Both the position numbers and the translations under genes were made by a program. Below the pieces are notes generated by a model. That model worked only from the letters and a program-made list of their open reading frames with translations. It did not search any database and had not been told where the DNA came from. Positions 19,431-28,182 of a stretch of DNA of 64,000 nucleotides are shown piece by piece. The first letter of the stretch is position 1, and the number at the start of each line of letters is the position of its first letter. The stretch lies in assembly GCF_044324875.1 (NCBI RefSeq), contig NZ_CP172185.1, one strand, 5' to 3'. The DNA is from Escherichia coli (GTDB lineage Bacteria; Pseudomonadota; Gammaproteobacteria; Enterobacterales; Enterobacteriaceae).

Positions 19431-21812
19431 TTAATCATTACAGGATAGGTTCATATTCCATTCATAAGCCTCAATGCCGTTAATCAGTAGTTGACGACTT
19501 TCTCCCTGAGGAATTATCACTTTCAATGTTTCCCATGCAGGGCGATAATCTCCATGAGTGTTTATTCTTAACTCAATTGTAGTGGCTGTGCAGTCCAGCT
19601 CCCATTCAAGCCACAGAGCATTACCTTCAGTATATCCCCAAGTTTCGCCATCATCTTCAAACAGAAGTCCGGTGGATTTACCCGTTCCTTTAATTGGGAA
19701 TAATTTCAATTTACGATGATTATCTTCCGCTTCACTCACGTATGTTATACGTTCACTAAGAGGAATACCTGCACCTGCACGTACTAATAATGGTAGTTTT
19801 TCCAGTGGCGCGTCGATTGTTATCCATTGACCACCACAGAACCATTCGCCATTGTAAAAGTCGTACCATCCTGTTTTGTTGTCGGGTAACCATACTCGTC
19901 GTTGTCGTTGCCCTGCTTCCACGACACTTGCAACCAGAATATCGCGTCCCAGCATAAAATCATCACATTCTTCAAATGTCTGAACATCGTGCTCATGATC
20001 AAGGAAGGTTGGACGTAATATTGGCTCATCATCGGCATGTGCCTGCCACAATAATGTATATAAATAAGGCATAAGACGATAACGTAACTCAATTGCACTA
20101 CGAATCGCGGGTGTTACTTCCGGATACATCCATGGTTCATTGACAGTATGATCATCATTCCACGAGTGGATCGTAAATCGGGGGTGCATAACACCGTTCT
20201 GAACCCAACGAACAAATAATTCTGGATCAGGCTTATCACCAGAAAAACCACCGACATCATGACCAATGTTATACAATCCTGAGAGGCTCATTCCCAGCCC
20301 CATGCGGGTGTTGTATCGAAGGGTATCCCAGTTAGTTCGGTTGTCCCCACTCCATGTCTGAACATAACGCTGCAATCCGGCGCATCCAGAGCGGGAAATC
20401 AAATATGGTCGTTTGTTCGGTGCAAATTTTTGCTGTGCTTCCATAGATGCTCTGCACATTAAAAGAGGCATTACTGGCCGAATGTGTTTAATGGCGATTT
20501 CTTTGCCAAAACCATGACAGCGCGCTTCCCCATCCCATACTTCAAACTCATTGTTATCATTCCAGGTGGAATCAATTCCCATTTCAAGTAGTTGTGTGGT
20601 TACACCTTCCTGCCACCATGCGACTGTTTGTGGGTTCGTAAAGTCCAGATGAGAACCCTCATCATCCCAGAAGCTGGAGCGTTCCGGGACGTTGTATTCA
20701 GAGTCACGAATAAAGAGCTCTTGTTCTGCTACTTCGTTATAGCGAGGATGATCCTGCAATAAACATGGTTTTATATTAGCGGCCAGGTGTATCCCTGCAT
20801 TATGAAACTCCTGACTCATCATTTTAGGGTGTGGAACTTTGTCGTAATTCCAGTTGAATACGTAGCGTTTACCATTAATAGAAGTATAACCAGAAGATAG
20901 CTGGAAAGAATCACATGGAATAGCATGTTCCTTACAAAGACGAATAAACTGCATCAATTGATTCTGAGCATCCGGTGCATCTGTATAGTGCATCGTGGAA
21001 CCGCTGTACCCAAGACTCCATTTTGGACCGAAGAGTGTTTTCCCCGTCAAACGAACAAAGGCTTTGGTGATATCAAGTACACATCTGCCAGTGAAAAGAT
21101 AATAATCAATATCTCCCGCCTCAGCCTGCCAACGGCGGTAAGTTGTATGATAATTATCTATTTCATTACCTAAATCCAGCCAACTATTGCTGAGGTTATC
21201 ATAAAATAATCCAAAGCTAATATCGCTACGGTGAGTAATTGTAAATGGAATATGTTTATAAAGAGGGTCTGTACTTACTGCATTATATCCCATTGCGTCC
21301 AGGTTCCGCATTTCATAGCGTTTTCCTGTGCGTTGCAGATCCCCGGATTTATCACCAAGTCCATAAAAACGCTCGTCATTACGTCGACTTTGATAGTGTG
21401 CAACACCATCACCATGAGCGTTTATCAGATAAGCACTGGTAGGGCGATCATTAACAAGTTCCTGCCACTGACCAGCATTATCCTTATAATGCCATTCAAG
21501 CCATAAAGGCTTGTGAATAATTACGCGTAATGAACTGGTCGTGATTGTCAGTAATTCATCATTCTGCTCCATGTTCCAGGTCGGCAGTGAAAAACCGCTA
21601 ATATCTTCGCGATGACGCCCTTCCCACGGGACATCCTTTTCCGGAGCAATGCTCCAGGTTCGGTCCAGCGACAAAACCCCCTTCCGTTTTAATAGAACCC
21701 GGAACATATTTTCTTCGAGTATATACAGGCAAAGAGAATGCTGACCATCAACTAATAGCTCTATATGATGGGCTGACTGATTTTGTAGTTTCCAGTTTTT
21801 TAATGTTTTCAT
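19431..21812 (-). CDS. GH31 family alpha-glycosidase (about 793 aa)
   Basis: The GH31 catalytic motifs are present: ...DSTWNDNNEF (nucleophile Asp region) and GHDVGGF (acid/base region). The start is taken at the ATG at 21812 (GGGAG 9 nt upstream); the track ORF begins at the GTG at 21818. Confidence 0.85.
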   Translation of the reverse strand: MKTLKNWKLQNQSAHHIELLVDGQHSLCLYILEENMFRVLLKRKGVLSLDRTWSIAPEKDVPWEGRHREDISGFSLPTWNMEQNDELLTITTSSLRVIIHKPLWLEWHYKDNAGQWQELVNDRPTSAYLINAHGDGVAHYQSRRNDERFYGLGDKSGDLQRTGKRYEMRNLDAMGYNAVSTDPLYKHIPFTITHRSDISFGLFYDNLSNSWLDLGNEIDNYHTTYRRWQAEAGDIDYYLFTGRCVLDITKAFVRLTGKTLFGPKWSLGYSGSTMHYTDAPDAQNQLMQFIRLCKEHAIPCDSFQLSSGYTSINGKRYVFNWNYDKVPHPKMMSQEFHNAGIHLAANIKPCLLQDHPRYNEVAEQELFIRDSEYNVPERSSFWDDEGSHLDFTNPQTVAWWQEGVTTQLLEMGIDSTWNDNNEFEVWDGEARCHGFGKEIAIKHIRPVMPLLMCRASMEAQQKFAPNKRPYLISRSGCAGLQRYVQTWSGDNRTNWDTLRYNTRMGLGMSLSGLYNIGHDVGGFSGDKPDPELFVRWVQNGVMHPRFTIHSWNDDHTVNEPWMYPEVTPAIRSAIELRYRLMPYLYTLLWQAHADDEPILRPTFLDHEHDVQTFEECDDFMLGRDILVASVVEAGQRQRRVWLPDNKTGWYDFYNGEWFCGGQWITIDAPLEKLPLLVRAGAGIPLSERITYVSEAEDNHRKLKLFPIKGTGKSTGLLFEDDGETWGYTEGNALWLEWELDCTATTIELRINTHGDYRPAWETLKVIIPQGESRQLLINGIEAYEWNMNLSCND

Positions 21813-21826
21813 CTCCACATACTCCC

Positions 21827-23128
21827 TCAGGTGCGTTTTTTGCGACGTTCTGCAATAAAAGTAACCAGAAAAAAAGCACCAATAAGATCAAAAAATCCCA
21901 TGGCGATAAATAGCGGGTTAAAGCCTATTTTGTCAGCAGTAACGCCAATAATCAGTGAGAACAAAAAGCTGGCAATCCATGCGGCTGAACCACGCATTCC
22001 ATTAACAGTGGCCATCTGCCCCTTATCAAAAGATTCAACGACCAGGGCACTTAACATGCAGGAAATTATCTGATGACCAAAACCACCAATGGAGATAAGT
22101 ACAATAGCAATATATGGATTGTCGATAAAAGCAATCACAGCAAGCGAAACCATTAGAAATGCTCCGCTTACAGAGGACGCAATAACAGAATTTACTCTGC
22201 TTAACCCAAACAGACGGGTATAGAGTTTTGTCAGATATCCGCTGGCAATACTTCCTAAATCAGCGCAAAGAAATGGTAACCATGCAAACAGAGCTATTTG
22301 TTTAAGGTCCATGCCATATGCTTTTGCAAGATATAATGGCACCCAAAAGCTCATTACAGCCCATGCTGGCTCTGCCATAAATGCAGGGATAGCGATTCCA
22401 TAAAAGCGTTTATTTTTACTAACTGTTTTTAACGCGGTCAGAAAAGGCATTTTTACCGGAGGAGCTTCGTTATCCTGTCGGATAAAGTTGAGCTCATTTT
22501 TACTTAAGTTTGGGTGCTCTTCTGGTGTGTTATAACACGCCCACCAAAGGAAAACCCAAAGAATTGCAAGTGCACCTGTAAACATAAATGCACCCTGCCA
22601 ACCAAATGACGCATGTGCAAAGTAAATAATTGGTGGTGCAAGCATTGCACCGATAGAAAAACCGACACCCGCCCAGCCAGCAGCAACAGGACGTTCAGAT
22701 TTTGGAAACCACTCACCTATAATTTTTGCATTTGCAGGTGTCGCAGAAGCCTCAGCACCTCCCATGAAAAAACGAAGCAACGCAAGCTGTATCCAGCTTC
22801 CTGCTCCTGCATGCAGAAGACAAGCAATTCCCCATAATGAAGCACAAATCATAAATCCAATCTTGAGCCCAATAACATCAATTAGCCATCCACAAAGTGG
22901 CTGAAAAAGGGTATATGCAAGCTGAAATCCACCAACAATCCAGGAGTATTGTTCAGTTGTAATTCCAAGGCTGTCTTTTAACTCTGGTGCCAAAATACCT
23001 AATGAGTTTCTGGTAATATAATTGACAGTGACACCCATTAGAAAAAGGATTAACATCCACCACCGTAGTTGTCTTATTATTCGACGGTGTTTGCTGACAG
23101 CTATATTATTATTTATATCCTGACTCAT
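21827..23128 (-). CDS. MFS transporter of the anion:cation symporter type (ExuT hexuronate-transporter-like)
   Basis: Collinear similarity to E. coli ExuT as I recall it (LRWxM..., YLTRN, FPxxERxxAxG, AEPAWxxxxxW.PL, FAWxPxLxADLG). The start is chosen at MSQDINNN (23128). Confidence 0.8.
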   Translation of the reverse strand: MSQDINNNIAVSKHRRIIRQLRWWMLILFLMGVTVNYITRNSLGILAPELKDSLGITTEQYSWIVGGFQLAYTLFQPLCGWLIDVIGLKIGFMICASLWGIACLLHAGAGSWIQLALLRFFMGGAEASATPANAKIIGEWFPKSERPVAAGWAGVGFSIGAMLAPPIIYFAHASFGWQGAFMFTGALAILWVFLWWACYNTPEEHPNLSKNELNFIRQDNEAPPVKMPFLTALKTVSKNKRFYGIAIPAFMAEPAWAVMSFWVPLYLAKAYGMDLKQIALFAWLPFLCADLGSIASGYLTKLYTRLFGLSRVNSVIASSVSGAFLMVSLAVIAFIDNPYIAIVLISIGGFGHQIISCMLSALVVESFDKGQMATVNGMRGSAAWIASFLFSLIIGVTADKIGFNPLFIAMGFFDLIGAFFLVTFIAERRKKRT

Positions 23129-23389
23129 AATCACCCCACCGGATGTAATAAATGATCGAGCGACAACGCAGCTCGGGGTTGCCACATCCCACTTTACCTT
23201 TCGGCTTAATACTTAAACCGGAACTACTCATTCACAATAAAAGAGGGGGGCGATGAAAAAAAGTTGGTATTGTGCACGTTTTTTCATAAGTAGTTCATAT
23301 AAATTCTAAAAATAGTCAGAAGTCCTTGCAGTCAGGCTATTCCATCCCATGAGAATTTTTTCATTTTGAAATTAGAGATAGATCACAAT

Positions 23390-24460
23390 ATGGAAAAAAA
23401 ACTAAAGATTGCTGATATTGCCATGCGAACAGGCCTTTCATCCAGCACCGTGTCACGGGTTTTAGCGGGTAAAGCTAATACCAGTTATCGTGCCCGCGAG
23501 AAAGTATTGGCGTGTGCCAGAGAGCTTGGGGTTATGGATGGAATGGCATCCGGCCGTATGTTGTTAAACAACCTTGTCATTTTTGCTCCTCAACGGGCTT
23601 TTGATGAGCGAACAGACATTTTTTATTTCCGCGTAATCCAAAGCATCAGCAAGGCATTATCGCATTATGAGGTTCGGTTGCGTTACTGTGCCCTTGATGA
23701 GTTCGATAGTACACCTTCAAAATTCCTGGCGCGCATGAATGAGGCAGAAACACAGGCTGCAATATTGCTTGGTATTGATGATCCTCATATACATGATCTT
23801 GCAGCAGATTTTTCTAAGCCGTGCGTAATGATTAACTGCCATGATCGACGTATGCGTCTTCCCACAGTTGCTCCAGATCACAAAAACATTGGTGCTTTTG
23901 CGTCTCACTTTCTGTTTGAAATGGGGCATCGCAGAGTAATGAACATTATGTGTTTACGTCGATACACAATGGAACTGCGACTTGCCGGAATTAAAGAAGC
24001 ATGGGAGAGACAGAATCAGAACTTTAAAGATGACAGAGATTTACTCACTATTAATAGTTTCAGCGCCAAAGAAGCCGAAGAAAAAGTCGGAGCATGGCTG
24101 GATATGACAGAGAAAAGTATGCTACCGACTGCTTTTTTGGCAAGTGGGGACTTCATTGCTGCAGGTATAATTAACGCTTTAAAAAAACGTAATATACGAG
24201 TGCCACAAGATGTGTCCGTAATGAGTATTGATGGGTTTAATCTGGCTGCAATAGAAGATGTGCCACTTACGGCAGTACATGTACCTCGCGATGAACTGGG
24301 TACTGAAGCGGTACATATGTTACAACAAAGACTTGTACGTCCTGATGCAACTGTTGGTGCATTACTTTTGTATGGGAAACTGGTAATACGAGAATCTGTT
24401 CGCCGTATACGGCCAGGGAAAGAGCCAACTCCGATTAAAGGAGATGGACTGTATGACTGA
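23390..24460 (+). CDS. LacI/GalR-family transcriptional regulator
   Basis: It has the HTH KIADIAMRTGLSSSTVSRVLAGK and a sugar-binding core. It is divergent from the MFS-GH31 pair. The start is taken at the ATG at 23390. Confidence 0.85.
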   Translation: MEKKLKIADIAMRTGLSSSTVSRVLAGKANTSYRAREKVLACARELGVMDGMASGRMLLNNLVIFAPQRAFDERTDIFYFRVIQSISKALSHYEVRLRYCALDEFDSTPSKFLARMNEAETQAAILLGIDDPHIHDLAADFSKPCVMINCHDRRMRLPTVAPDHKNIGAFASHFLFEMGHRRVMNIMCLRRYTMELRLAGIKEAWERQNQNFKDDRDLLTINSFSAKEAEEKVGAWLDMTEKSMLPTAFLASGDFIAAGIINALKKRNIRVPQDVSVMSIDGFNLAAIEDVPLTAVHVPRDELGTEAVHMLQQRLVRPDATVGALLLYGKLVIRESVRRIRPGKEPTPIKGDGLYD

Positions 24461-24755
24461 AACCACAGCCTCTGATTCTTCCGGTCAAGGGAAAATAAGC
24501 GTAATGTTCATCACCAGATTATGTACGATGAGTTTTCCACTGTTTATAGCAATTATCTTGCTAATAACCAGACAGGAGTAACCAGACCAACCGAAAACAC
24601 CGGGAAGGTGATTACCCGCTGGCAGAGGAAATCCGGTTTTTTTTGATGTCAGCCATAACGTGTTTGACAATAAAGCATTATGAAAGGGTGTTAATGAGTC
24701 CATGGGATAATTCATAAAAATAATTTACTGTGTTATCCTTTTCAAAAGAAATATT

Positions 24756-24786
24756 CAGAAGATAACCCCTGGCTGACAACCAGGGG
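24756..24786 (-). terminator. Stem-loop downstream of the TPR-like gene
   Basis: cccctgg-N7-ccagggg; on the minus strand it is followed by ttatcttctg, a weak U tract. Confidence 0.4.
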
Positions 24787-24857
24787 AAGGGGACATTAAC
24801 AGTGTTATTATTGGTGGATAAATTATTACTTGTGTGCAGGATACACTAATGCAATAT

Positions 24858-25901
24858 CTACTGATACTGTATGCCAGTATGTTTCATGCCTGCCGCTGAA
24901 AACGGCAATATCCAGGGCCAGACATATTCACCATTCATATTTCTGCATTTCTGTACAATTTTTTCAGAAAGCGTCTCATCAATTCTTTCACGCAACTTCT
25001 CCTGCTGTCTTAAAATACTTTCGCATATTTCGAAATCACCTTCCTGCATCAGCATTTCGGCGCATTTAATGATTTCTGCCCGTTCATGCAGCACAGAGGA
25101 ATGATTATAGAGCCAGTTTACAAACAGCAATGCTTCCGGATATTGTCCCCATAATGGTGAGTATGTTGCATAGTAATCTTCTGCCGTATCCAGAGAGCCG
25201 GAGAAGTCATGCCACACAGCAAGTGGAAATGGATGCAGATTTCCGCACAGCATTTCTGCGATGTAAGTGTTTGTGGCAAAGCCATGGCGAAAATCTGTGG
25301 CGGCCTTAACATGTTCCCCGTTCAGAAAATGCAGGAGACCGAGTTCATACCAGTAAGGTGAAAATTCATCAGCATGCTCTTTCAGTACACTGAAGGCTCG
25401 CTCATGATCGCCGGTGCGTAACAGCTCTGAACCCAACAACCAGCGAGCCCCCTGATTATCTTCAGGATTGTATGCCAGTATTTTATCAGTGAGCATAACC
25501 GCATCCTGATGGCGCTGTAAGTGCACATTTGCGAGAATTGCTGCATAAAGCGCGCGCAGATAAGGCCGGTTTTCGGGATGCATCCAGATTATTTCACCAC
25601 AGAAACTTTCCGGGATGATACGATTACCTGCCGCCAGTCCTTTAAGAGCGGCGTTCAGTGCCTTACGCGGGGCATTCTGTTCCAGAAATGCATATGCCAG
25701 ATGAGCGTGTATATCAATAAAATCCGGCTCCCGTTGAGCAAGGCGTCGGAGTTTGTTGATGTAACTCGTCTCGCTGATTTCATCAGCGTCGTATGCATCA
25801 AGCACTTCTTCAAACTCCCCCAGCAATGGGCCAAACCAGGTATCCGGAAATACGAAATAACCCTGGTTATCGTGCACTTCAAAGCATAATCTATCGTTCA
25901 T
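24858..25901 (-). CDS. Hypothetical protein with TPR-like helical repeats (347 aa)
   Basis: Track ORF with repeated amphipathic helix pairs (e.g. HAHLAYAFLEQNAPRKALNAALKGL; YLRALYAAILANVHLQRHQDAVMLTDKILAYNPED; WYELGLLHFLNGEHVKAATDFRHG). I recognise no catalytic motif. Confidence 0.6.
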   Translation of the reverse strand: MNDRLCFEVHDNQGYFVFPDTWFGPLLGEFEEVLDAYDADEISETSYINKLRRLAQREPDFIDIHAHLAYAFLEQNAPRKALNAALKGLAAGNRIIPESFCGEIIWMHPENRPYLRALYAAILANVHLQRHQDAVMLTDKILAYNPEDNQGARWLLGSELLRTGDHERAFSVLKEHADEFSPYWYELGLLHFLNGEHVKAATDFRHGFATNTYIAEMLCGNLHPFPLAVWHDFSGSLDTAEDYYATYSPLWGQYPEALLFVNWLYNHSSVLHERAEIIKCAEMLMQEGDFEICESILRQQEKLRERIDETLSEKIVQKCRNMNGEYVWPWILPFSAAGMKHTGIQYQ

Positions 25902-26311
25902 TTTCTGAGCCTGTAAAACATGTGGTGATATAGTCTGAGAGCATAAAAGTTGAGATTCTGTGTATCAAGTCCTGTCTTGGCACTGAATGAATATTGCTTA
26001 CAAAGCCCCTTCATGCTTTCCTTGAGAACAATAATTTTATCTTTATGTGAATCTCATTTTTTATAATGATGTCAGATGATTGAAATGCTAAATTATATCT
26101 GAATCAACTTTTCCTTTGCTAAAGGTATCGAAATAACTGCAAGGCTGTATTTTGTAATTGCCAATTTTAAAATGTCAATTTGCTTTTAATTATGTTTTTG
26201 TAATAAGTTTGAAGACGCAAAAAATAATATAATAACAAAAATCCTCCAGCCTTGTAGGCCAGAGGATAAAATACTTAATTGAGGAAAACATCAGGGAAAA
26301 GTATTTTTGAC

Positions 26312-27496
26312 TTAACTTTCCCGGCTGGAGAGTGAATCAATGTAATCAGCGTACCATTGCATCATTTCACGGCGGCCATCGAGATACAGGGCATGATTAT
26401 AGGTACCCCTGATGGAATTTTTATCCACATGAGCTAACTGCATTTCAATCCAGGCGGAATTAAAGCCTTGTTCATGCAGAATTGTACTCATGGTGTGTCT
26501 GAAACCGTGCCCTGTGAGTCTTCCCTTATATCCAAGTAATTCAATTACTTGGTTAATGCTTTCCTTACTAATTGGTTTGCGGGGATCATTTCTACCGATA
26601 AAGACTAGGGGATGATGTTTTGAGATTGGTTCAAGCTGCTTAAATAGCATAATGACCTGCTCAGAGAGCGGCACAATATGAGGTCGCTTCATCTTCATTA
26701 CTTCTGCCGGGATCTCCCACAATTTTGTCTCAAAATCGATATCTTCCCAGCGTGCAAAACGCAGTTCTTGTGTTCGTACGCCGGTTAACATAATGATCTG
26801 AGTAGCTGTCTTAGTGATTATACTTCCGGTATAACCCGCCAGATCGTTGAGGAAGTGGGGAAGTTCATTAGCAGTAAGAAAGGGAAAATGTACTTTTTTC
26901 GGTGTAGCTAAAGCACTGGCAAGATCGGGGGCTGGGTTATAGTCTGCCCGGCCAGTAACAATTGCATAGCGGAACACCTCACCACAGCGCTGGCGGACCT
27001 TGCGCATTTTCTCCAGAGCTCCACGTTTTTCCATTTTACGCAGTGCTTCCAGTAACTCCATTGGTTTGATTTCGGCAATAGGGCGCTTGCCAATGTAGGG
27101 AAAAATGTCTTTTTCAAAGGTATCAATGATTTCATCACGATAGCGTAATGACCACCGATCGGCTTTTGACTGGTGCCATTCGCGAGCAATAGCCTCGAAC
27201 GTATTTTGCAGACTCATTTGCTGCGCGATTTTTTCTTCCTTTTTTGCCTCCCCTGGATCGCCTCCAGCAGCGAGGAGTTTCCTGGCTTCACTGCGTTTCT
27301 CGCGAGCATCGGCTAGCGTTACATCGGGGTATACGCCAATAGAAAGCATCTTTTCTTTACCAGCAAAGCGGTACTTCATGCGCCAGTATTTAGAACCATT
27401 AGTGTTAATCAGTAGATACATACCGCCGCCATCAGCAAGCTTATAGGGTTTGTCTTTGGGTTTTGCGGTTTTCACTTTGATATCGGTTAATGCCAT
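26312..27496 (-). CDS. int: P4-type tyrosine integrase (394 aa), intact
   Basis: It has the N-terminal DUF4102-like arm domain (KPYKLADGGGMYLLI...GSKYWRMKYRFAGKEK) and the catalytic residues ...HGFRHT... and ...RGTYNH.... It lies 300 bp from the 3' end of selC. Confidence 0.9.
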   Translation of the reverse strand: MALTDIKVKTAKPKDKPYKLADGGGMYLLINTNGSKYWRMKYRFAGKEKMLSIGVYPDVTLADAREKRSEARKLLAAGGDPGEAKKEEKIAQQMSLQNTFEAIAREWHQSKADRWSLRYRDEIIDTFEKDIFPYIGKRPIAEIKPMELLEALRKMEKRGALEKMRKVRQRCGEVFRYAIVTGRADYNPAPDLASALATPKKVHFPFLTANELPHFLNDLAGYTGSIITKTATQIIMLTGVRTQELRFARWEDIDFETKLWEIPAEVMKMKRPHIVPLSEQVIMLFKQLEPISKHHPLVFIGRNDPRKPISKESINQVIELLGYKGRLTGHGFRHTMSTILHEQGFNSAWIEMQLAHVDKNSIRGTYNHALYLDGRREMMQWYADYIDSLSSRES

Positions 27497-27795
27497 GACA
27501 TCCTCCGGCTTTTGATGAATTCATGTTCCTGAGGGGGATTTCTGCCAGTAACTAACCTGATACCCCCAATACACCCCTTGTATAACAAAGATGTTGTTAA
27601 AAGCCGTTGTTATATATCATATTTTTCCTATTATGGGGGTGCTGGTATTTCAATAGGAAATAACACCCCCTAAAGTACCCCCAAAAGAAACTTGATACGG
27701 GGTGAAGTAGGTTGACCTCTGGATACAAATAAATACTGATATACAAGGGATTAGAAGAGATTTATTGACATTGGGAGAGTTCAGAAGAGGTAAAC

Positions 27796-27890
27796 TGGCG
27801 GAAGATCACAGGAGTCGAACCTGCCCGGGACCGCTGGCGGCCCCAACTGGATTTGAAGTCCAGCCGCCTCACCGGAGACGACGATCTTCC
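27796..27890 (-). tRNA. selC: tRNA-Sec (selenocysteine, UCA anticodon)
   Basis: The minus strand reads GGAAGATCGTCGTCTCCGGTGAGGCGGCTGGACTTCAAATCCAGTTGGGGCCGCCAGCGGTCCCGGGCAGGTTCGACTCCTGTGATCTTCCGCCA, 95 nt with the long extra arm. Confidence 0.95.
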
Positions 27891-28182
27891 GCGCCTCGAT
27901 TGCTACATGGAGGCGGGGCGCATTATAGCTACTTCCTTGAGTTTCTACATCCCCCAGATCAGTTTTTTCCGCCTAATACACGCAGCGTATTATCACGGAA
28001 GCATTATAATTCATATAAAACCCATATTTTACAATGATATATGAGCGGAATTAACGCTACCACGATCACATAAAACAAGAATCATAAATTAATAACCAGA
28101 TATCGGAATATTCGCTCTCACAGGGATGGTTTACAAAATGCGTTATCGGTCTCAGCACCCCTATAGCATCAAGGAAAAGCAG

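Follow-up and report, generated by a model that had tools for sequence, protein, structure and literature searches.

What does a single gene do when it stands alone between the integrase and the metabolic cargo of a tRNA-borne genomic island? The question is raised by a locus of Escherichia coli contig NZ_CP172185.1 (assembly GCF_044324875.1), of which a stretch of 64,000 nucleotides, referred to here as the window, was analysed. Its sequence matches the chromosome of the avian pathogenic E. coli strain BEN2908 at 100% identity, and its island at the tRNA gene selC is taken to be AGI-3 of that strain (Chouikha et al. 2006), judging from reference lists. The gene in question, the open reading frame (ORF) 24858-25901 on the minus strand, encodes 347 amino acids and is labelled 'tetratricopeptide repeat protein' (WP_097416716.1) in RefSeq. 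A first-pass annotation made from the sequence placed it correctly, as an intact ORF between the integrase and a glycoside hydrolase family 31 (GH31) module, and described it as an orphan and as the least explained gene of the window. Neither description can be kept. The ORF is almost certainly the AGI-3 allele of shiA/sisB, a gene already known and named, whose family has been mutated and, as later papers report, has published in-vivo phenotypes.

The identification follows from protein identity and from position. Over all 347 residues, the window protein is 96% identical to a Shigella flexneri cluster (P0001), and it is 84% identical to a widespread, very large E. coli cluster (P0006); two main allele classes are seen, at 84-87% and 96% identity. 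For the uropathogenic E. coli (UPEC) strain CFT073, SisA and SisB have been described as 83.3% and 96.8% identical to Shigella ShiA, respectively (PMC13340028). Since these published identities match both allele classes, the window gene belongs to the shiA family and is of the sisB type. In keeping with the family, it is 1,044 bp long and lies directly downstream of a P4-type integrase at selC. The island SHI-2 of S. flexneri has the same succession of selC, P4-type integrase and shiA, and differs from the window in the cargo that follows, which is aerobactin in SHI-2 and sugar-utilisation modules here. A 2018 study had already reported that the first 2.9 kb of a selC island, including shiA, are common to SHI-2 (99%), and that the first 3.7 kb of that island share 96.8% identity with a 49.6-kb avian island. 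SisA and SisB of CFT073 and SisA of the LAA island found in STEC (Shiga toxin-producing E. coli) are members of the same family, the window allele being of the selC/SisB type; in a 2026 paper on the LAA island, the 1,044-bp gene that PGAP annotates as 'tetratricopeptide repeat protein' is equated with sisA (PMC13340028).

First reported in 2003, the gene is routinely scored as a virulence marker under the names shiA, sisA and sisB, and its molecular mechanism has not been established since. ShiA, SisA and SisB are reported to suppress the early inflammatory response of the host, and shiA mutants to provoke more inflammation, according to the summaries of this work in reviews and later papers. 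Transcription of shiA has been documented in Shigella, where it is anaerobically induced, and for sisA, expression was seen in urine from women with urinary infection, in 6 of 8 strains. The deletion made in STEC in the 2026 study took out ept, hes and part of atoS along with sisA (PMC13340028), so the resulting phenotypes are not assignable to sisA alone. ShiA has also been called a 'putative quinone reductase' and a 'transporter gene' in some papers. Searches of Pfam and NCBIfam gave no match to a quinone reductase or NADPH oxidoreductase, even at E <= 10, and no profile match supports the 'transporter' label either, which is probably a mix-up with the shikimate transporter gene of strain K-12, which is likewise named shiA. 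The first-pass remark that molecular function cannot be read from the sequence still holds where the mechanism is concerned.

The protein has the features of a soluble repeat protein. It has a mass of 40 kDa, is acidic (isoelectric point 5.1) and is predicted to be soluble; no transmembrane segment or signal peptide was found in it, the maximum Kyte-Doolittle hydropathy over 19 residues, KD(19), being 0.75. Pfam returns only matches of the tetratricopeptide repeat (TPR) type, covering residues ~49-206, among which ANAPC3 scores 36.4 bits against a cut-off of 27.2, and NCBIfam returns only generic TPR models below threshold (SctY, PrsT, MamA). An AlphaFold2 model based on 24 homologues (pLDDT 86.4, pTM 0.79) consists of an N-terminal beta-hairpin (residues 6-17) followed by 17 helices, with a poorly defined loop at residues 228-234 that carries the invariant pair W230-H231. 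With a profile match above the curated threshold and a helix-pair repeat structure, the protein can be classed as a TPR protein, and the model suggests an architecture in which the TPR pairs are joined by a conserved C-terminal helical cap and the N-terminal beta-hairpin. No catalytic or DNA-binding domain occurs among its profile matches. The first-pass annotation was thus right to describe TPR-like helix pairs and to see in the protein no sign of catalysis, DNA binding, secretion or membrane insertion.

Of known folds, that of the structured core of eukaryotic Rqc1/TCF25 comes nearest to the predicted one, with 13% sequence identity to Rqc1 in the structural alignment. Among 74 diverse family members, 20 match the Pfam family Tcf25 (PF04910) at E <= 1, the best of them at 2.5e-10, and two, P0136 (26.0 bits) and P0199 (26.3 bits), pass the gathering score of 24.2. 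These two are related to the window family over their full length (E 1.5e-52 and 7e-36), and their Tcf25 alignments are collinear, running from about residue 47 to 219 of the protein and from 27 to 216 of the 337 profile positions; P0136 carries a precomputed PF04910 match as well. A preprint names N423, D461 and P531 as the most conserved residues of Rqc1 and describes N423 as packing on the only beta-sheet of the protein. In the ShiA family, N111 and D148 are invariant and separated by 37 residues (38 in Rqc1), and there is a single beta-hairpin, so that in both families one small beta-sheet packs on an Asn that is invariant. As deposited, the core of Rqc1 is itself an AlphaFold model that was placed into density of low resolution. 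Searches of PDB sequences with three profiles were dominated by canonical or designed TPR proteins and did not retrieve Rqc1, and a second, word-indexed homologue search with the Tcf25-matching members yielded few new proteins. Overall, the placement of the ShiA family in the same fold family as TCF25/Rqc1 is moderately supported.

That ShiA works like TCF25 is not supported. TCF25/Rqc1 binds the RING domain of Listerin through an N-terminal helix (TCF25 F195, Rqc1 F214), contacts the acceptor ubiquitin with acidic residues near its C-terminus (Rqc1 E637/E657), and requires a basic, disordered N-terminus for anchoring to the large ribosomal subunit. The ShiA family differs from Rqc1 in being prokaryotic, about 340 amino acids long and without a ubiquitin system nearby. 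An Rqc1-type basic disordered N-terminus is absent from the window protein, which is acidic and starts with the beta-hairpin. If the offset that equates N111 with N423 and D148 with D461 is applied, the RING-contact region would apparently fall upstream of residue 1, and the positions that contact ubiquitin would be barely reached, at the extreme C-terminus. No paper tying ShiA or SisA to TCF25 was found in the literature searched. A separate observation concerns some remote relatives (P0220-P0224), which carry precomputed matches to PF04184 (ST7, a eukaryotic TPR-containing tumour-suppressor family), a second eukaryotic family alongside Tcf25.

The distribution of the gene in E. coli indicates how it is maintained. 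It is present in 1964 of 5426 complete genomes, or about one third, in up to five copies each and with alleles down to ~87% nucleotide identity. Linkage to the integrase was measured by annotation of 12 sampled chromosomal loci; a megablast count with the integrase and TPR gene together was dropped, since in nucleotide sequence the pheV integrases have diverged too far for it. In 11 of the 12 loci, located at selC, pheV and pheU, a P4-type integrase is directly upstream, in one case with an IS21 inserted between the two genes, and the remaining locus has insertion sequence (IS) remnants where the integrase would be. At least eight kinds of cargo lie behind the gene, including the sugar-utilisation genes of the window, pap fimbriae, ept-leoABC-tia, ept with an outer-membrane protein (OMP) gene and subAB, a large AAA protein, Zorya II, a decarboxylase/antiporter pair and IS66. 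The survey of the pairing across islands with different cargo, which the first-pass annotation had proposed, was therefore positive. None of the findings that it had named as refuting was obtained either, as no housekeeping family is matched, the orthologues are known to be expressed, and the homologues in E. coli are linked to integrases. Because the gene stays by the recombinase while the cargo changes, it is best read as part of the backbone of the mobile element and not as swappable cargo. A remnant ST131 island retains only intP4 and shiA.

The two members of the pair have diverged to different extents, the selC- and pheV-type integrases being 43-63% identical and the adjoining TPR proteins 86-92%. 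Pairwise dN/dS of the alleles is 0.11-0.25 with dS up to 0.64, which indicates old alleles kept under purifying selection. Near-identical integrases (97-99%) occur both with the TPR gene (amino acid identity) and without it (nucleotide identity). An excisionase or recombination directionality factor was considered as an identity for the protein and rejected, given its 347 residues, its lack of a DNA-binding domain and the persistence of 99%-nucleotide-identical integrases without the gene. Some E. coli islands have anti-phage genes just behind int-shiA, namely zorA2 of a type II Zorya system in ET358 (L112:6659-8041), and a gene for a large AAA-domain protein of more than ~1,170 amino acids in 20KM2228 (L111:5059-8044).

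Beyond E. coli, the family is large. When 1.8 billion cluster representatives were searched with a profile, 164 clusters were retrieved at E <= 1e-30 and, at the looser limit of E <= 1e-10, 1615, with almost all members ~330-350 amino acids long. Full-length homologues with 40-48% identity occur in free-living beta- and alphaproteobacteria, including Rubrivivax, Massilia, Undibacterium, Janthinobacterium, Methylobacterium, Rhizobium and a marine roseobacter, and weaker homologues occur in many phyla. A role specific to mammalian immunity can therefore not be the ancestral function of the family. The settings of the homologues are consistently mobile ones. Homologues are found on 75 plasmid records from at least 10 genera, and 45 of these records are conjugative. 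Within SXT/IncC-like conjugative elements, the gene is flanked by the coupling-protein/traJ-like genes on one side and the SLT-OmpA-traLEKB block on the other, or, in another context, it is oriented divergently from FlhDC/SetCD-like master activators.

A third setting is the transposition module of Tn3-family elements. In Morganella, Serratia, Klebsiella and Pseudomonas amygdali, the gene is located between a divergent tnpA and the serine resolvase gene tnpR, with which it forms an operon and whose start codon it overlaps by 4-34 nt in these four genera; the Serratia copy is annotated 'shiA'. Remote members of ~30% identity are adjacent to a Tn3 transposase and resolvase in Hydrogenophaga and in at least one further metagenome-assembled genome (MAG), and to a resolvase alone in Methylobacterium and an Acetobacteraceae MAG. 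Ordinary Tn3 passenger genes sit away from the transposition module, toxin-antitoxin pairs being the known exception. The analogy with these pairs is one of position only, as the shiA-like gene between tnpA and tnpR is a single gene without a toxin or antitoxin domain. Since three unrelated types of element harbour relatives within their recombination or transfer modules or next to them, the assignment of the gene to the backbone of mobile elements is strengthened.

Two further neighbourhoods were noted. The gene for P0062, a homologue with 40% identity, runs 24 nt into the start of a complete Wadjet jetABCD operon, overlapping its first gene (L103:976-8664), an overlap that suggests either co-transcription or a shared hot spot. 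In one lineage of betaproteobacterial conjugative elements, a gene for an AAA_22 ATPase of 382-396 amino acids follows the shiA-like gene after ~80-108 bp (L094:8001-10327; also L007 and L011), and P0097 (513 amino acids) is a fusion of an AAA_22 domain to a shiA-like domain; this ATPase could be a functional partner. It is confined to that single lineage and gave only a weak mad8 match. In a survey of 22 full-length loci, E. coli alone had a neighbouring P4-type integrase, apart from two other loci with weak evidence of one.

Taken together, these results favour an explanation that we hold to be reasonably probable as a whole, mainly owing to the certainty of the identification. ShiA/SisB would be a soluble, cytoplasmic, non-enzymatic helical-repeat protein that, inside the bacterium, serves as a protein-binding adaptor for a conserved partner and thereby benefits the element or its bacterial host. 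The lower host inflammation associated with ShiA, SisA and SisB may then be an indirect consequence at the level of the organism, visible in pathogens. The separate parts of this explanation are not equally firm. Identity, fold class, linkage, selection and distribution are shown by the data, whereas the adaptor mode, its place inside the cell and the indirect character of the immune effect are deduced. It is somewhat more probable than its opposite that the protein is a binding scaffold without catalysis, and the proposal that it has an element-related role inside the bacterium is put forward tentatively, at a little under an even chance. The intracellular adaptor is preferred because the protein looks like a non-enzymatic scaffold with conserved polar residues of a surface type and no export signal, and because the gene is linked to recombinases, embedded in Tn3 modules, carried by conjugative elements and plasmids, and present in non-pathogens.

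Several observations weigh against this explanation. The invariant polar residues H67, H131, D148, E159, E186 and W230-H231 could mean catalysis in place of binding. The published phenotypes of shiA, sisA and sisB, in the accounts cited above, are directed at the host. The window protein has no Tcf25 match at E <= 10. No conserved neighbour gene was detected over the 22 full-length loci, shadow ORFs aside, and no partner was identified there. A 99%-nucleotide-identical integrase is kept where the gene is missing, as in a case where an IS1-mediated deletion reaches a few bases into the beginning of the TPR coding sequence (CDS), and intP4 has been described as the only universally conserved gene of GI-pheV; it follows from these two points that the gene is not required for maintenance of the integrase.

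The reported inflammation phenotypes of shiA mutants and of SisA and SisB, within the limits of those accounts, could be explained if ShiA/SisB entered host cells and suppressed inflammatory signalling there. The resemblance to Rqc1 and the Pfam link to Tcf25 add to this, as the Rqc1/TCF25 core binds the Listerin RING and acceptor ubiquitin, and by analogy the protein might bind ubiquitin or an E3/E2 enzyme and skew ubiquitin chains in NF-kB-type pathways. Such a host-directed effector is nevertheless improbable. Neither a signal peptide nor a membrane segment is present in the protein, free-living bacteria of soil, water and plants commonly carry members of the family, as do transposons and conjugative elements, and the E. 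coli proteins keep all family-invariant residues. Under the N111/D148 offset, the protein would also be without the F214/D215 RING-contact region of Rqc1 and would barely reach E637/E657. UPEC, for which SisA/B phenotypes have been reported, is not known to have a Shigella-type injection system, which counts against the effector as well. Equally to be considered is a gene of conflicts between mobile elements, acting as a single-gene defence against phages or plasmids or, more plausibly for a binding protein, as an anti-defence factor that shields the incoming element. The positions of the gene are typical of such genes, next to the integrase in tRNA islands and, in SXT/IncC-like elements, with traJ-like genes on one side and traL on the other; one homologue abuts and overlaps Wadjet jetABCD, Zorya II is close by in one E. 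coli island, toxin-antitoxin genes occur nearby, and a Klebsiella plasmid has an antirestriction gene 0.6 kb downstream. Against this stand the absence of an effector domain and the strong purifying selection on long-lived alleles, where rapid turnover would be expected of a conflict gene. PADLOC-DB 2.0, which dates from 2023 and contains no anti-defence models, gave no match for the window protein or for six homologues chosen across the family (P0029, P0046, P0056, P0097, P0136 and P0199). None of 50,697 phage records holds a homologue, PHROGs gave no meaningful match, and a viral structure library returned generic giant-virus TPR proteins only. The suggestion of an anti-phage gene in the first-pass annotation thus found no support, and a conflict gene of either kind is considered unlikely.

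The recombination modules themselves suggest another role, in which the protein would be an accessory factor that tunes the expression or activity of the adjoining recombinase, acting on island excision and integration in E. coli or on cointegrate resolution and immunity in Tn3 elements. The gene adjoins tyrosine integrases in E. coli, is in translational coupling with serine resolvase genes in the Tn3-family modules of four genera, and in a conjugative element points away from FlhDC/SetCD-like master activators; RapI and the Rap protein of pLS20 are among the structural neighbours of the model. These TPR regulators of the Rap type control the excision and transfer of Gram-positive elements (RapI that of ICEBs1), but the structural similarity to them is no better than that to any other TPR protein. 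Unlike Rap/RRNPP proteins, moreover, the window protein has no N-terminal effector or helix-turn-helix domain and no adjacent gene for a signalling peptide. The low identity of the integrases next to well-conserved TPR proteins, the existence of the same integrase without the gene, the lack of a DNA-binding domain and the absence of a recombinase within 6 kb of most homologous loci all speak against an accessory factor. Tyrosine and serine recombinases also work by unrelated mechanisms, and a single protein is unlikely to be a direct cofactor of both. An accessory role in recombination is therefore regarded as very unlikely, and the intracellular adaptor remains the preferred explanation.

A bolder version of the intracellular adaptor can be formulated, in which ShiA/SisA would represent a prokaryotic branch of the TCF25/Rqc1 fold that mobile elements (tRNA islands, Tn3-family transposition modules, SXT/IncC-like conjugative elements and plasmids) keep next to their recombination or transfer genes and that serves the element, the anti-inflammatory effect being secondary or re-used. 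We consider it rather unlikely as it stands. If it were true, the role might be, for example, the neutralisation of a conserved host factor or defence, or the binding of a ubiquitin-like protein. Three leads are absent from the literature searched, namely the TCF25/Rqc1-like fold, the link to recombination modules on three classes of elements, and the environmental distribution. If they hold, they would advise against taking the presence of the gene as evidence of a capacity for immune evasion. For the window, the outcome is plainer, as the ORF belongs to the ordinary backbone of selC and pheV islands and has had a name for some time.

The surroundings of the gene in the window are listed in Table 1, together with the Tn3-module homologues. 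The local order is yicI-yicJ, tRNA-Sec, the P4-type integrase, the TPR gene, the module of a LacI regulator, a major facilitator superfamily (MFS) transporter and a GH31 hydrolase, IS remnants and the fos cluster (GH32).

Table 1. Features around the shiA/sisB-family gene, with a comparable gene in Tn3-family modules. Coordinates are those of the window unless a locus is named.
Feature	Coordinates	Strand	Details
LacI regulator, MFS transporter and GH31 hydrolase module	19431-24460		ORF and RefSeq annotation
Conserved downstream segment	24461..24857	.	397 bp, 38.5% GC; shiA-ept intergenic DNA and ept 3' remnant
Annotated 76-aa ORF	24485-24715	-	antisense to the ept remnant
Terminator-like stem-loop	24766..24786	-	72 nt past the stop codon; CCCCTGGTT-GTC-AGCCAGGGG, weak T-tract
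shiA/sisB-family gene	24858..25901	-	ATG start, 347 aa; ORF list and RefSeq CDS at the same coordinates
AT-rich upstream spacer	25902..26311	-	410 bp, 31% GC (50% GC in the whole window)
P4-type tyrosine integrase of the selC island (AGI-3)	26312..27496	-	ORF and RefSeq annotation
tRNA-Sec (selC), island attachment site	27796..27890	-	ARAGORN; Rfam RF01852, 83.8 bits
Tn3 module with a shiA-like gene	L108:1813-6577		Klebsiella pCAV1344-40; also L099, L107, L109

The flanks had been described as about 400 bp of AT-rich non-coding DNA on each side. This is true of the upstream spacer; the downstream side is occupied by the annotated 76-aa ORF, shiA-ept DNA and the ept remnant. A strong terminator of the integrase is located within the upstream spacer at 26267-26241. 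The best promoter-like hexamer pair for the TPR gene, TTGACA-18-CAAAAT, is at 26178-26149, with others at 25968-25940 and 25917-25888; these promoter-like sites are consensus matches only, of which the spacer has 12 against 4.9 +/- 2.1 in shuffled sequences. The downstream stem-loop noted in the first-pass annotation does exist, with a stem of 9 bp, six of them G-C pairs, and a weak T-tract (TTATCTTCTG). Terminator-like sites number 3 in the region against 1.7 +/- 1.2 in shuffles, and because shuffled sequence gives a similar count, the stem-loop is unremarkable when taken alone. In combination, the integrase terminator, the promoter-like hexamers and the downstream stem-loop make the TPR gene look like a transcription unit of its own. 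An Rfam scan of 24300-28100 returned tRNA-Sec as the sole match above threshold. A weak match to the COG2908 RNA motif, antisense inside the CDS at 25241-25289 (+), was also seen (22.1 bits, E 0.013) and is attributed to chance, its score being far under the Rfam gathering score of 58.7.

The 76-aa ORF was examined as a candidate partner gene of shiA and rejected, as it runs antisense to the ept remnant and is frameshifted in several genomes; it is probably not such a partner. The segment that contains it, 24461-24857, occurs in 1646 genomes and is 98-99% identical at the nucleotide level to pheV islands, in which the shiA CDS is 87-90% identical in nucleotides and 86-90% in amino acids. A sharp mosaic boundary thus lies at the stop codon of the TPR gene, the DNA on its 3' side being far better matched than the CDS. 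The last 13 codons of the phosphoethanolamine-transferase gene ept, which is convergent to shiA, match at 92% identity, and homology to the pheV islands stops at ~24457, where the LacI gene of AGI-3 begins. From the ept 3' remnant and this end of homology, an ancestral backbone of the order int-shiA-ept-(tia/hes-type OMP) is deduced. As the sequence comparison reads, AGI-3 lost everything beyond the 3' end of ept, and the AGI-3 cargo took its place.

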